From positions 1-15,249 of the forward strand of contig JAWODC010000037.1 in the NCBI GenBank assembly GCA_046483495.1: a DNA stretch of 15,249 bases. The letters are read 5' to 3'. The translations under genes and the position numbers were made by a program. Below, piece by piece: positions 156-4,600 of this stretch. This stretch comes from Desulfobacterales bacterium (lineage in GTDB: Bacteria > Desulfobacterota > Desulfobacteria > Desulfobacterales > UBA5616). A model generated the notes under the pieces. That model saw only the letters and a list, made by a program, of their open reading frames with translations, searched no databases and had not been told where the DNA came from. The stretch's first letter is position 1. Each line of letters opens with the position of its first letter.

Positions 156-200
156 CAACGCCGATATAGGGCCTGAGGGGAGGTTTTGAAACCTCTTCTA
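156..200 (+). repeat. Truncated (right-arm only) copy of the palindromic ERIC/RPE-like element
   Basis: caacgccgatatagggcc...ttttgaaacctcttcta aligns with the right arm of the 5339-5484 element read on the minus strand (caacgaagatattggggc...ttttgagacagcttgta); lengths 45 vs 44 nt. Its terminal TA overlaps the TAG stop of the 198..692 gene. Confidence 0.55.
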
Positions 201-692
201 AGGTTTCTCCTGTTTTTTGCGCCTCCACACATACGCGCCAAGGACAAGATTCAGCAGAATGCTCAGACCGAGAAACAGTTTGATGCCCATGGGCGCCTCT
301 GCAAATATGGCATTTTTTTCGTCCGAGATTCCATCCGTTCCCGTCTTAGAAAATTCGCCGGCGGTTTCCGGTTCACTTACCGTGACGGTTGCATGGACCG
401 CATGCCCCATACCGTCATTTACTTTCACCTGCCACTTTCCCGGTATGTCTGCCAAAAAAGCAAACCTGCCGTTTTGATCCGTGCGGCCGTTTTGATGCTC
501 TATTTTGTCGTTTTTCGGGCTGAAAACCAGGACCTCGGCAAACGCCATGGGCGTTTTGTCGGAATAGAAGAACTCCGCCGCAACCACCGCATCTTTGCCG
601 ATGAGGCGGTAGTCGGTACCATGGGCGAGAGCACTGTTAACAGGTGCGGCCGTCATCCATATCAAAGCCGAAAAAAAAAGCATTCGGTGCAT
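198..692 (-). CDS. Membrane-anchored periplasmic accessory protein of Ni/Co uptake (NikL/CbiL-like, DUF4198-related transthyretin-like domain)
   Basis: Signal peptide ending ALA|HGT; motifs YSDKTPMAFAEVLVFSP, GRTDQNGRFAF and DGMGH; C-terminal TM helix followed by RRKK. Start overlaps the upstream stop (TAATG at 692). Confidence 0.75.
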   Translation of the reverse strand: MHRMLFFSALIWMTAAPVNSALAHGTDYRLIGKDAVVAAEFFYSDKTPMAFAEVLVFSPKNDKIEHQNGRTDQNGRFAFLADIPGKWQVKVNDGMGHAVHATVTVSEPETAGEFSKTGTDGISDEKNAIFAEAPMGIKLFLGLSILLNLVLGAYVWRRKKQEKP

Positions 693-1417
693 TAGTTCAC
701 CTCGAATGTTAAAAAGGTCATAAATTTCAAATAGTCCAAACCGGAATTCTGTTCAGCGGGTATTCGGTGCGCTGCATACAGCAAGTGCATGCCGCCTTTT
801 TCAAAAGCTATTTCGGCTATGCCGTTCTCATCGGTTTTCGATTCCCGGTCAAGGTCGTCAAAAACCGAAATCCCTTCGAGAGGCCGGCCGTCAAACAGAA
901 CTTTAAAGGCTGCCGGCGTTCCCGGTGCCAGAGTCATGGGATCTGTTAGGGGCACCAATTCAAATTTCAATCCTAAGGGTTGACTGTTGCCTGCGGAGGG
1001 GGCGAACAGATTTTTTGAAAATTGCGTAGAAACAAATGCGCTCACAACCGTCAGGCCTGCTGTTTCGGCCGCCTGCCGGTTCATCAGTTTTTTGCCGCGT
1101 GTTGTGTTGACCCGGTCACCCCATTCGCTGACTACGGCCACCAGAGCAGGTTTTTCATTGGTGGTAAAGACGATTCGATCTTTTTCATTCAGCCGGTTTA
1201 CGGAAAGTTCGGTTCCATCGGGGGCCTTGGCTGAAATATGCTTTATACAGGACGGATCATAGGGGTCAAGGCGGTCTCCGATGATGCCCCTGCACACCCC
1301 ATAGGTGTCATCCCCTTCCTGGACCCAGAGATGATGGGCAAAACAAACACTTGCGGCACACCACATGCCTGCCATAGCCGCCGCGAACACCAACGCATTT
1401 TTTAAGCATCTTTTCAT
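692..1417 (-). CDS. DUF4198 family periplasmic protein (NikK-like component of Ni/Co uptake loci)
   Basis: Signal peptide ending CFA|HHLWV; DUF4198-type C-terminal motifs PLGLKFELVPLTDP, FKVLFDGRPLEG and KTDENGIA; SD AAAGGAG at 1433-1427. Confidence 0.85.
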   Translation of the reverse strand: MKRCLKNALVFAAAMAGMWCAASVCFAHHLWVQEGDDTYGVCRGIIGDRLDPYDPSCIKHISAKAPDGTELSVNRLNEKDRIVFTTNEKPALVAVVSEWGDRVNTTRGKKLMNRQAAETAGLTVVSAFVSTQFSKNLFAPSAGNSQPLGLKFELVPLTDPMTLAPGTPAAFKVLFDGRPLEGISVFDDLDRESKTDENGIAEIAFEKGGMHLLYAAHRIPAEQNSGLDYLKFMTFLTFEVN

Positions 1418-1581: not shown

Positions 1582-3642
1582 TTAAAATTCGAATTTCACA
1601 CCGCCGGTGACAATCAGGCCCGGGGCGATGGTGTCCGCCCGGCCCTGCGCTCGAAAAATTGGATACGCTTCATCGAAAAGATTTTCAGCATTGATATAGG
1701 CGGTGAAGCGATCGAGAAATCTGCGCGAGACCGCGGCATCCAGGGTAAAATAGCCGCTGTCTTTGAACGTGTTTTCGTTATCGAAGTAGATATCGGCGTA
1801 ATAATTGCCTATCACGGATACATTCACGATTTTCGGGTTTTGGTAATGAAATCCCACATGGACATTGTGCCGGGGGTCGTTGGGCAGGTAGTTGCCCTCC
1901 AAGTCGGCATTGTTTTCATCCTCTTTTACCTCGGACACGTTGTAGGTGTAGTTGGCAAACAGGGTGAGATCGGATAGGGCATACCACGCGAGTTCGGTTT
2001 CGATTCCGTAAATATCCACCTCGCTGATGTTGTCCAGCTGATACTCAAACCGGGTTTTTCCGCCGGCAAACGTGCCGGTGCCGGTGAGGCGATCACCGAT
2101 ATAATCTTTGGCAAATGACTGGTAAAATGTCAATCTGCCCCAGAGGTTGTTTGTCAAAAAACGCTCCACTCCCACATCGTAGGACCATATTTTTTCAGGC
2201 TCCAAATCGGGGTTGGCCTCACGATAAAAAGTGCCGCCTCCACGGACATGAACCTTGTAAAGCTCGAACAGGCTCGGGGCCCGAAAGCCTTTCCCGCCGG
2301 ATGCCCGAAATGTGGTGCTGTCATCCGGATGCCAGGCGACACCCAGCTTGGGAGAGAAACCGCCCTCCGTTTGGGAGTCGAACGTATTGTCATAAGCCGG
2401 CTTTCCGGCGCTGCCCTGGCTGTCCCGGTTGGCGCCGTCCGAGGTTTTAATCCAGTCATAACGGGCCCCGAGGTTAAAAATCAGGCTGTTATCCCAAAAG
2501 CGGAGATCCAAACTTGCAAAGGGCGAAATGAAGCGCTGCCTGCCTTCTGCTCCGACATCCCGTATTGAAGAAACATATTCATCATCGTAATCCCAGGAGG
2601 CTTCCTTGTAAGCTGCACCCAAGGTGAAGTTCGACTGCGAACCGAACGGTATGGTTCCCTGAAAATCGGCGCCCCATGTCGTGGAAGGCATCTCCTCCAT
2701 GCGTAACAGTGACGAGTAGTCATCTTTTGCCGTATCCTGAAATGCCGTTTTGTCGGCTCGATTATAATACAGCAGCCCTTTGAGATCGAAAAGGTCCCCG
2801 TTGTGGCTGTAGTTCATCCAATATTGATCCAGGGTCAACTCGTCATAAAAGAATCTTCTTCCTTTCCCTGTTTCGTGATCGTAGTACAATCCGGTTATAG
2901 CGATATCGGATGCAGGGGTCAGATCATAGGTCACCTTGCCGAAAACTTTGCCGACTTCACGGTATCGTTTAATCTCGTAATCTTCCGGGTTTTCAACCAT
3001 GTAAAACCCATCGCTTTCTTCATAACCGCCGGCCGCCATCAATCCGATGCCCTTGATTTTCTGACTGTGATAACCGTGTCCGCCGTAGGTCTCGGCAGTG
3101 CCGGCTTCACCTCGGATCGACGTTTGCCTCTGAGCATTCGGCTTTTTGGTAATGATATGGATCACACCGCCAAGCCCCTCCGATCCGTAGAGCGCCGAGG
3201 TCGGACCCCTCACGATTTCGATACGCTCGATGGCTTCTTTTGGAATGTGGCCCCAGGCAACCCAGGCAATGGCGTTGTTGAAATTGTCGTTCTGCGGCAC
3301 CCCGTCCACCAGAATCAGAATGCGGTTGTTGCCCACACCGCGCATTTTCAACGGGCTTACGATGCCGTTTGTCTGCAGACCGTAATGCCGGAAATTATAC
3401 ATGCCCGGTACACTGCGAAGGATGTCTTCCACACGGTCGAAGGGAGAAGCCATGAGTTCCTCATTGGAGATGACCGTCACGCTCTGGGGCGCATCGAACA
3501 CCGGTATTTCGGAGCGGGTTGCCGAAACCACCACCTCATCCACGCGATACACATCCGTTGACGTTTCCTGCGCCGACAGCGACAGCGGGCATCCAAGAAC
3601 CGCAAGAGCCGATAAAACGCCGATCCACTTTAACCAGGCCAC
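1582..3642 (-). CDS. TonB-dependent outer-membrane receptor (probably Ni/Co or metallophore uptake)
   Basis: GTG start with SD AAGGAGG at 3656-3650; signal peptide; TonB box DEVVVSATR; plug motif IERIEIVRGPTSALYGSEGLGGVIHIITKK; barrel motifs FRAPSLFELY, NPDLEPE and NAENLFD; C-terminal Phe. Substrate inferred from neighbouring genes. Confidence 0.95.
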   Translation of the reverse strand: MAWLKWIGVLSALAVLGCPLSLSAQETSTDVYRVDEVVVSATRSEIPVFDAPQSVTVISNEELMASPFDRVEDILRSVPGMYNFRHYGLQTNGIVSPLKMRGVGNNRILILVDGVPQNDNFNNAIAWVAWGHIPKEAIERIEIVRGPTSALYGSEGLGGVIHIITKKPNAQRQTSIRGEAGTAETYGGHGYHSQKIKGIGLMAAGGYEESDGFYMVENPEDYEIKRYREVGKVFGKVTYDLTPASDIAITGLYYDHETGKGRRFFYDELTLDQYWMNYSHNGDLFDLKGLLYYNRADKTAFQDTAKDDYSSLLRMEEMPSTTWGADFQGTIPFGSQSNFTLGAAYKEASWDYDDEYVSSIRDVGAEGRQRFISPFASLDLRFWDNSLIFNLGARYDWIKTSDGANRDSQGSAGKPAYDNTFDSQTEGGFSPKLGVAWHPDDSTTFRASGGKGFRAPSLFELYKVHVRGGGTFYREANPDLEPEKIWSYDVGVERFLTNNLWGRLTFYQSFAKDYIGDRLTGTGTFAGGKTRFEYQLDNISEVDIYGIETELAWYALSDLTLFANYTYNVSEVKEDENNADLEGNYLPNDPRHNVHVGFHYQNPKIVNVSVIGNYYADIYFDNENTFKDSGYFTLDAAVSRRFLDRFTAYINAENLFDEAYPIFRAQGRADTIAPGLIVTGGVKFEF

Positions 3643-3695
3643 TGTTTTTCCTCCTTTTAATGTTTAAATGACGAAAAAAATCGTTTTCGTTCAAC

Positions 3696-3745
3696 AAAAA
3701 AACCACGAAGGTGCATCCCGATTGGGGTGCATGGACCTTCGTGGT
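3696..3745 (-). terminator. Intrinsic terminator inside the 5' leader of the TonB receptor operon (attenuator terminator)
   Basis: Minus-strand RNA ACCACGAAGG-UCCA-UGCACCCC-AAUC-GGGAUGCA-CCUUCGUGGU then UUUUUU: a 10-bp outer stem plus a 7/8-bp inner stem. It ends about 55 nt before the receptor start and lies about 200 nt downstream of the previous gene's stop. Confidence 0.8.
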
Positions 3746-3806
3746 CTCGTTTATTCCAATGATATGTAATTTAGTCTATCTCGGGCGAGACAGTAATCCG
3801 CATGCA
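3728..3806 (-). promoter_or_regulatory. Putative antiterminator helix, mutually exclusive with the terminator
   Basis: Nested pairings: UGCAU(3806-3802):AUGCA(3732-3728), GGAUU(3799-3795):GGUCC(3737-3733, two G-U pairs) and GUCUCG(3791-3786):CGAGAC(3749-3744). The 3' partners lie in the terminator's 5' arm. Found by eye, not folded computationally. Confidence 0.55.
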
Positions 3807-3862
3807 GTCATCTTTATATAACATTGATATGCAAGATCTTTAAAACGTTCCGGCATCTTCAT
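3776..3862 (-). CDS. Putative leader peptide (uORF), 28 aa: MKMPERFKDLAYQCYIKMTACGLLSRPR
   Basis: Open frame from ATG 3862 to TAG 3778-3776, stopping about 30 nt before the terminator. Cys14 and Cys21. No SD, so possibly near-leaderless. Below the ORF track's size cut-off. Confidence 0.55.
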   Translation of the reverse strand: MKMPERFKDLAYQCYIKMTACGLLSRPR

Positions 3863-3871
3863 GATGCGATT

Positions 3872-3906
3872 ATGATACAAAAACCATATATCCGGTAAAA
3901 TGTCAA
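3872..3906 (-). promoter_or_regulatory. Candidate sigma70 promoter for the leader/TonB receptor operon
   Basis: TATCAT at 3877-3872 with TTTACC at 3899-3894 (16-nt spacer). A perfect TTGACA at 3906-3901 is also present but lacks a good -10 at 17 nt. Confidence 0.35.
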
Positions 3907-3941
3907 GAATAAGCCAAGCGCCTTTCACCGCAAGACCGGGT

Positions 3942-4600
3942 TTAGAACACCACGTCTTCGAGATTCACCGGAGCGTGCGTCATCGGGCGGCACCCGTCTT
4001 TTGTGACCAGAACGGTGTCGGAGTGGCGAAAACCGCCGATGCCTTCCATATAGATGCCCGGCTCGATGCTGATAACCATGTTTTCTAAAAGCACGTTTTC
4101 ACTGCCCAGTGCAATCCAGGGGGGTTCGTGTCCTGTGATGCCGAATCCATGACCCGTTCGGTGCAAAATATTCTCACCGAACCCCCTTTTCCTGATAAGG
4201 TGCAAAACCTGCCGGTCGATCTCGGCTGCGTGTACACCCGGTCTGATCAGGTCAAATGCCAATGTGCGCGCTTCCATCATGGCTGAAAAAGGCGCCTTTG
4301 CCGATTCCGGTATTTCGCCGATAAAAAAGGTGCGCTCGAGTTCGGCGGAATACCCATCCGCCTGGGCTGTTACGATCGTGACGTTCGGGCCGCCGGTTTT
4401 TAGTGAATCGAACAATCCCGGAACGCAGTGCGGTTGGGCGGAAAGGGCACCCGGCCATACGGCGCACACCGTTTTGGTCAGGTTTGAGCGGCAATGTAAT
4501 AATCGAGTCCCAAATCCTCCATCATAGATCTTACCTTGAAGAGACGGGATTCGAGTTCTGCCGATTCCGGCGGCGACATTATAGGCGAAATCGCATCCAT
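3942..4600 (-). pseudogene. M24 family (Xaa-Pro peptidase/creatinase-like) hydrolase, internally deleted and frameshifted
   Basis: ATG 4600 (SD AAAGGA) gives MDAISPIMSPPESAELESRLFKVRSMMEDLGLDYYIAAQT, then TGA at 4480-4478; this is the start of a Creatinase_N-type domain. The catalytic half (DGYSAELERT, HRTGHGFG..HEPP, IEPGIY, GGFRHSD) follows immediately in another frame. Total is about 220 codons versus roughly 350-400 for intact members. Confidence 0.75.

Follow-up and report, generated by a model that had tools for sequence, protein, structure and literature searches.

A dual-hairpin RNA element predicted to attenuate nickel-uptake operons in Desulfobacterales and beyond

The leader of a TonB receptor operon

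The window, by which we mean the whole 15,249-nt stretch of DNA that was analysed, carries on its minus strand a TonB receptor operon with a structured leader. Its features, listed from the predicted promoter downstream, are as follows.

3901..3906 (minus): TTGACA, -35-like hexamer of the predicted promoter, read from the sequence, 44 nt before the P1 loop
3853..3867 (minus): hairpin P1, 5-bp stem GCATC/GATGC, with a loop AUGAA that contains the ATG of the upstream open reading frame (uORF); -5.9 kcal/mol alone
3776..3862 (minus): 28-codon uORF, really present in the sequence, non-conserved on comparison and judged incidental
3747..3852 (minus): variable spacer of about 107 nt from P1 to P2, containing a local hairpin (3793-3776)
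3734..3746 (minus): mini-hairpin P2, GACC-ACGAA-GGUC, formed by the 5' arm of the terminator and predicted from folding to exclude it; its outer pair covaries
3696..3748 (minus): predicted intrinsic terminator, stem 3748-3703 followed by U7 at 3702-3696; -28.8 kcal/mol
3650..3655 (minus): AGGAGG, Shine-Dalgarno sequence of the TonB receptor, read from the sequence
1582..3642 (minus): TonB-dependent receptor, 686 aa, GTG start at 3642, predicted to take up nickel or a nickel chelate (PF07715 and PF00593)
692..1417 (minus): DUF4198 protein, NikK-like (PF10670, E 7e-20)
198..692 (minus): NikL-like subunit (NF058648, E 2.7e-13, under the family cut-off)

The uORF runs from an ATG at 3862 to a TAG at 3776 (MKMPERFKDLAYQCYIKMTACGLLSRPR), with six residues between Cys14 and Cys21 of its peptide, and the terminator stem begins 27 nt past its stop codon. 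The 181-nt leader folds with a z-score of -4.3, and none of 200 shuffles folds equally well. The -10 partner of TTGACA is ambiguous, with the promoter scan proposing TTTACC-16-TATCAT at 3899-3872. An RNA library contains a single 154-nt contig that matches 3780-3932 exactly and is uninformative on start, end and strand, and BLAST against the host genome itself returned no paralogue of the leader at the nucleotide level. An earlier note on this DNA had described the uORF, the terminator with its U tract and the Shine-Dalgarno sequence of the receptor in this order, and all of them are present on the minus strand. Its placement of an attenuator before a nickel/cobalt-type uptake operon also stands as regards the regulated terminator, which is followed by TonB receptor, DUF4198 and NikL-like genes; what its feature set overlooked is the pair of conserved hairpins P1 and P2.

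The Atlas label of the receptor is TonB receptor, nothing more specific. We take the DUF4198 gene to be nikK-like. In the available part of PMC545781, DUF4198 genes beside nikM are named NikK. Between the terminator and the Shine-Dalgarno sequence lies a palindrome, ACGAAAA-N5/6-TTTTCGT at 3671-3690 (minus), which might act as an operator or fold into a small hairpin and was not seen as a feature of the family described below. Upstream of the leader, an M24 peptidase reading frame (3942-4469, minus) matches only positions 56-208 of the 208 in its profile and has no clear start; truncation or a frameshift may have affected this gene.

Two conserved hairpins and a competing terminator

Relatives of the receptor were gathered from 61 related genomes, 68 genome loci and 73 metagenome loci. 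The motif of P2 and terminator is present in 54 of the 102 distinct receptor leaders for which 200 nt or more of upstream sequence was available, the window and two distant receptors being included in the 54. P2 lies at the start of the terminator 5' arm with the consensus RCC-ANGAA-GGY and can fold as a 4-bp mini-hairpin, and P1 is a hairpin that closely follows a TTGAC hexamer or predicted promoter and has NGAA or ANGAA as its loop. A wider collection comprised 179 sites, or 169 after dereplication (59 from receptor-related loci and 110 from genome searches); at 16 of them the other strand matches too, and some represent a single hairpin read twice. A covariance model, R1, matches the terminator site of the window with an E-value of 1.8e-9, this site being part of the model's own alignment.

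P1 is found at 113 of the 169 sites (73 of the 110 from genome searches) by a finder that, like the search pattern, was derived from the first leaders inspected. In 100 shuffles the corresponding count averages 6.2 and never exceeds 12, and in a control stretch downstream of the terminator it is 11 of 166; kinship among sites can inflate the count. A detectable P1 is missing at the remaining 56 of 169. TTGAC stands 43-55 nt before the P1 loop at 83 of the 113 sites. The commonest loops are UGAA (33), AGAA (24), AAGAA (20), AUGAA (14), ACGAA (8), CGAA (8) and AGGAA (6), and the stems use all pair types, with C-G as the closing pair in 85. The spacer from P1 to P2 is free in both length and sequence (quartiles 36, 50 and 85 nt; range 6-149).

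Since the core of P2 is itself the search pattern, its conservation is circular; its outer pair lay outside that pattern. The outer pair is Watson-Crick at 105 of 169 sites (shuffles: mean 65, maximum 85), with slid pairs at chance, and in 53 aligned sites 96% of cells are paired, which none of 500 shuffles reaches. By these counts, which kinship can likewise inflate, the outer pair of P2 is a covarying one. In the window, the closing pair of P2 has a predicted probability of 0.83-0.98 in five shortened transcripts and of 0.00 once the terminator is complete, and P2 alone is worth -4.9 kcal/mol against -28.8 kcal/mol for the terminator. Because the two structures exclude each other and P2 is the weaker, termination is the predicted default: the terminator would outcompete P2 and transcription would stop.

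At 43 of the 169 sites, compared with 1 in a reverse-complement control, the terminator is itself capped by an NGAA-type loop. The idea that this apical loop substitutes for a missing P1 is not supported, as the loop occurs at 15 of 56 sites without P1 and 28 of 113 with it (p 0.85). Several terminators match the element in either orientation (L220 on G151:C139, L042, L046, L084, L166 and G492:C155). At L220, a TonB receptor lies on each side of the two-way element, and one hairpin may serve two divergent units there. At other loci, we observe tandem elements or a terminator loop that is itself a full ACGAA or AUGAA hairpin (L212:351-560, L245:459-580, L204, L207 and L248).

The earlier note knew of no described element of this type, and an Rfam scan of the window and 20 other loci, with NiCo, cobalamin, guanidine-II and Moco among the families covered, gave no match to the element at E<=1 in the window and none at E<=5 in the others. 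The leftover matches are chance snoRNA and sRNA ones far below gathering scores, with two snoRNA ones in the window lying away from the element. NiCo and cobalamin riboswitches are both in Rfam 15, and the NiCo riboswitch turns efflux on. The element shares with the NiCo (czcD) and cobalamin riboswitches the control by RNA, through termination, of nickel/cobalt or corrinoid transport, but differs in having neither an Rfam match nor a multi-stem junction, and it precedes importers, whereas NiCo serves efflux.

Distribution, regulon and exchange with NikR

Within the host order, Desulfobacterales, a strict pattern matches 219 of 301 genomes, some single hits being no hairpins, while a reversed-pattern control gives about 30 as counted by eye. 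A stricter pattern matches 38 of 201 genomes in a sample of the phylum, with 0 in the control. Carriers that could be named include Desulfobacteraceae, Desulfopila, Desulfurivibrio and Desulfoferrobacter, the last with the cultured D. suflitae (locus L103). In Bacillota, the element occurs in one record, NZ_CP154629.1 of Acetoanaerobium noterae, and a second record with DUF3842 (116 kb) had no site. Of the two sites in the A. noterae record, the first precedes an Opp/Nik-type ABC operon and the second uppP/bacA, and the record also has a cooT-DUF3842 pair next to its acs genes. PLSDB lists it as a plasmid, but with a length of 2.63 Mb and with flagellin, acs and housekeeping genes it looks like a chromosome. 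Its site before uppP/bacA, an unexpected target, is an element with UGAA at the terminator apex and no upstream P1 (L293:1684-2499). Two pattern matches in viral contigs were discarded as chance ones, as both fall within a phage terminase gene, in antisense orientation.

The host genome has exactly three sites by both pattern and model: the window receptor, a second receptor on contig C18 and nikK-nikM-nikL on contig C11. All three precede uptake genes. For a wider tally, 147 genome-search sites gave 133 distinct first reading frames, of which 8 clearly in the wrong frame were dropped and 125 were scanned. The first downstream genes encode DUF4198 (21), TonB receptors (21), CbiM/NikM (11), binding proteins/FecCD (15), TonB/ExbB/DUF3450 (4), porin-like proteins (4), DUF6802-like repeat proteins heading exbBD operons (6), class I methyltransferases (6), DUF3842 (4), FmdE (3), CooT (2) and others (13), together with 15 family-less products, two of which are LbtU porins by NCBIfam. 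Among the 125, no efflux pump and no nickel enzyme was named, and some regulated genes, such as 6 class I methyltransferases, 1 CobN-like gene and 1 BacA/UppP gene, give no specific pointer to nickel.

Some of these operons are unusual in content. Some element-controlled TonB receptors belong to, or resemble, the FCYXU and PUIUD motif types of NCBIfam (L213:1546-3678, L228:6372-7766 and L212:2611-3999), which suggests selenocysteine-containing metal receptors in the regulon. CobN/Mg-chelatase-like and tetrapyrrole-methylase-like genes in element-controlled operons (L306:1572-3050, L192 and L228:4640-5554) might handle imported metal tetrapyrroles or nickel chelates. On distant TonB receptors of the order, six leaders (L018, L019, L021, L022, L025 and L028) look by eye like cobalamin riboswitches.

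The way in which the element and NikR alternate points to the metal. Allowing up to 2 mismatches, a NikR-like operator is found in 17 of the 47 receptor leaders that lack the element and in 3 of the 50 that have it; the 47 include inner genes of operons and a few elements that are degenerate. The operator consensus used agrees with that in the available part of PMC545781. A nikR gene adjoins the receptor at 7 loci, none of which has the element. The window leader contains no NikR operator of the GTGTTAC-N13/14-GTAACAC type, and tblastn with one query found no NikR in the host genome, which is 96.7% complete. At the level of genomes, NikR occurs within the host order in 0 of 40 pattern-positive and 3 of 40 pattern-negative genomes, and outside it in 4 of 34 and 27 of 46, respectively, so that only 4 of 74 pattern-positive genomes also carry NikR. 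Between orthologous operons and between genomes, the element thus appears largely to replace NikR operators.

When compared to NikR repression of nikKMLQO in delta-proteobacteria, as given in the part of PMC545781 at hand, the predicted targets are shared (nikK, nikM, nikL and nickel TonB receptors) and the same logic is expected, but NikR acts at a DNA operator whereas the element would act as an RNA attenuator, and the two mostly alternate. From the gene content and this exchange, we infer that the signal is nickel and that the predicted uptake genes would be on when nickel is scarce. The metal is quite probably nickel.

A candidate reader and the competing explanations

Co-occurrence was tested for four families, namely DUF3842, CooT, NikR and ANTAR, in genomes that are related to one another and were picked by pattern, so that the counts overstate significance. 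From the host order, the sample took 40 of the 219 positives, all strong ones, together with 40 of the 82 negatives; from outside the order, it took all 34 positives and 46 of the 160 negatives. Within the order, DUF3842 is found in 40/40 pattern-positive and 22/40 pattern-negative genomes, and CooT in 40/40 and 26/40; outside it, the corresponding values are 34/34 and 8/46 for DUF3842 and 34/34 and 20/46 for CooT. The totals are therefore 74/74 versus 30/86 for DUF3842, 74/74 versus 46/86 for CooT and 4/74 versus 30/86 for NikR.

This co-occurrence predicts hidden elements in genomes that have DUF3842 and lack the pattern. Covariance-model matches were obtained in 21 of 30 pattern-negative genomes with DUF3842 and in 7 of 50 without it (50 of 56 run), and reading each match left true elements in 20 of 30 and 3 of 50, respectively. 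No true element was obtained in 10 of the 30 genomes with DUF3842. Where CooT occurs without DUF3842, the element is found in 1 of 16 genomes. Two genomes, G168 (100% complete, 30 contigs) and G046, have elements yet no match to DUF3842 or CooT, and G048 has a variant element with NikR and CooT and no DUF3842 match. The outer P2 pair is broken at both sites of G168, which fits decay, yet G168 is also a counter-example to the DUF3842 link.

In the host genome, DUF3842-cooT is present at G000:C18:102475-103095 (minus), behind parB and before an ispH-like gene, with no element, and in many relatives the pair follows one other conserved gene; the host pair looks like a core, unregulated locus. An element lies directly upstream of DUF3842 in 1 of 41 regions, which rules out autoregulation of every DUF3842-cooT operon.

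The two proteins do not resemble RNA binders. The DUF3842 model is a plain small Rossmann domain (pLDDT 81; best structural match Z 9.0) with a net charge of about zero and no basic excess, and the fold search returned no RNA-binding relative. Column identity in the family is about 76%, and we found no solved sequence relative and no usable Atlas match beyond the family itself. CooT is acidic (median charge -5), and its model (pLDDT 92.5) matches the CooT structures 6fan and 5n76. No Sm or Hfq protein is among the best 50 matches listed, so neither the fold search to that depth nor the charge supports CooT as an Hfq-like RNA binder. In the literature, DUF3842 turned up in a single paper, on an unrelated subject, and the part of PMC13056359 at hand treats CooT as a CODH maturase only. 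In the available part of PMC10230548, the proteome of a cooT deletion in Clostridium autoethanogenum, an organism outside the element survey, shows no changed nickel transporter among the matching rows of Table S3. The 'hp' gene of that study is described there as histidine-rich, so the hp deletion is probably not one of DUF3842.

We lean slightly towards reading the dual-hairpin leader as a protein-assisted antitermination system that is on when nickel is low, with DUF3842 as the reader and CooT as the sensor. A dimer or oligomer would bind both (A)NGAA loops and hold P2, allowing RNA polymerase to read through. Co-occurrence suggests that DUF3842 may be the protein that reads the RNA, and also that CooT, its nickel-binding neighbour, may switch it off when loaded with nickel. 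More tentatively, and with doubt just outweighing belief, DUF3842 and CooT could constitute a new class of metal-sensing RNA-binding antiterminator, in which a Rossmann-fold protein clamps two distant (A)NGAA hairpins until a chaperone loaded with nickel switches it off.

Among the alternatives, it is unlikely, though worth keeping in mind, that antitermination depends on another protein or on CooT alone, or that the metal to which it responds is not nickel but cobalt or a different trace metal. Only four families were sampled, CooT is also in 74/74 positives as well as G048, and CbiM-family, CobN-like and tetrapyrrole methylase genes are in the regulon. On the other hand, of the 16 genomes in which CooT occurs without DUF3842, just one has the element, while the exchange with NikR operators points to nickel, and none of the element-free receptor leaders contains a cobalamin-riboswitch box.

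A protein-free riboswitch is unlikely as well. Here, the two (A)NGAA hairpins would meet around a metal ion or nickel metabolite and control the terminator, for which the two-loop contact of guanidine-II is a parallel, and DUF3842 and CooT would be merely members of the regulon or makers of the ligand. The two look-alike loops, the third NGAA loop atop the terminator (43/169 versus 1), the three genomes with elements but without DUF3842 and the lack of any resemblance of either protein to an RNA binder favor such a reading. However, a ligand that holds P2 would switch importers on with the metal present, which is the wrong direction. The conserved loop and stem bases number only about nine, with no junction, the loops are non-complementary and separated by 6-149 nt, and the element tracks tightly with DUF3842, the prediction test included.

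The architecture is closest to that of ANTAR leaders (EutV, NasR and AmiR), for which we rely on the available part of PMC3369931. Common to both are two small hairpins with similar loops, the second overlapping the terminator 5' arm, and a logic of default off (predicted here) with read-through upon protein binding. ANTAR targets have hexaloops with A1 and G4 and a linker of 5-12 nt, and a linker of 14 nt already broke induction (PMC3369931). In contrast, the element has (A)NGAA tetra- or pentaloops, a spacer of 6-149 nt, P1 at the predicted transcript start and a metal-uptake regulon. As loop size, linker and partner differ, the element is predicted to work like an ANTAR leader without being a member of that group. 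That it is a divergent ANTAR target, with an ANTAR response regulator binding P1 and P2, seems very improbable: the layout is shared (PMC3369931) and ANTAR proteins are found in 5 of 6 genomes or records (the host genome and 4 of 5 others), but the loops are of 4 or 5 nt, the linker has a median of 50 nt rather than 5-12 nt, and G090, one contig with at least five element sites, has no ANTAR match.

The remaining alternative is the mechanism of the earlier note, in which a ribosome stalled on the Cx6C/SRPR peptide of the uORF selects either the terminator or an antiterminator of 16 bp, which might add a strain-specific layer to the conserved element. Like the leader peptides MgtL and CruR, CutF and the trp-type attenuators, the uORF is a short reading frame that ends near a terminator, although in one genome only. 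The proposed duplex between codons 19-26 and the terminator 5' arm can indeed be drawn in this sequence (5+5+6 = 16 bp, -16.1 kcal/mol) and is better than 193 of 200 spacer shuffles; as the other 7 are as good, it slightly outdoes chance in this single sequence. Across the family, the duplex lacks conservation. Pairing of spacer and terminator arm at p<=0.05 against shuffles occurs at 3 of 54 sites (drawn from the first 60 of the 113, window included), which is the chance rate (mean p 0.55), and the 16-bp duplex appears in 0 of 6 folded nascent transcripts.

The peptide itself fares no better. A conserved uORF, whose absence from orthologous leaders the note had named as grounds for abandoning the idea, is lacking in 48 related receptor leaders (the 54 with the terminator motif minus the window, two distant receptors and three short leaders). 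The best local peptide match there in any sense frame scores 27, compared with 31 in an antisense control and 152 for the peptide against itself, and the supposedly sensory Cx6C pattern is present in 3 of the 48. Even against the closest orthologues, whose receptors are 81-84% identical, the spacer is broken by indels. ATG reading frames of 15-60 codons occur at 12 of the 113 sites with both hairpins, none of them related. No Shine-Dalgarno sequence lies within 25 nt before the uORF ATG, and the ATG is explained by the AUGAA loop, which accounts for 14 of the 113 P1 loops. A CATAAT hexamer ends 6 nt before this ATG and could allow leaderless translation in this strain, but a leaderless start would remove the 5' arm of P1.

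With no conserved uORF in orthologous leaders, we reject the leader-peptide reading; there is very little chance that it is correct, and a peptide that decides termination through an antiterminator helix is unsupported. We judge the uORF to be incidental, with no conserved part in regulation. In contrast to MgtL, CruR, CutF and the trp-type systems, the conserved information lies in the RNA structure, and we have little doubt that the leader is a conserved RNA attenuator rather than a peptide-based one.

By sequence comparison, the window site is one member of a widespread dual-hairpin attenuator family of predicted nickel-uptake operons that is apparently unpublished. In the literature available to us, no description of a dual-hairpin nickel element was found, with the catalogues of Weinberg 2010 and 2017, Stav 2019 and Brewer 2021 covered via Rfam 15. 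In PMC11109978, a motif survey that includes Desulfobacteraceae motifs, the available main text does not contain cbiM, cobalt or TonB, and its supplement may list the element RNA. A term search of the accessible text of a 2025 antiterminator review (PMC12591593) found neither nickel nor cobalt, and the part of PMC11247825 at hand, on nickel in cable bacteria, does not mention a riboswitch. The RNA family, its metal input and the candidate reader appear to be new to print, the architecture being already known from ANTAR.

For the window, the analysis adds one member to the attenuator family and removes a leader-peptide false lead. Nickel enzymes such as CODH/ACS and hydrogenases are essential to sulfate reducers, syntrophs and acetogens, and NikR was found in only 3 of the 80 genomes of the order tested. 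The element offers a concrete, testable answer to how nickel import may be controlled in these organisms. It would give a role to the unstudied DUF3842 and mark TonB receptors and ABC transporters as likely nickel importers. If the proposed mechanism is true, sulfate reducers, syntrophs and acetogens without NikR would have their missing nickel regulator in DUF3842/CooT, which would also be the first nickel-responsive antitermination protein.
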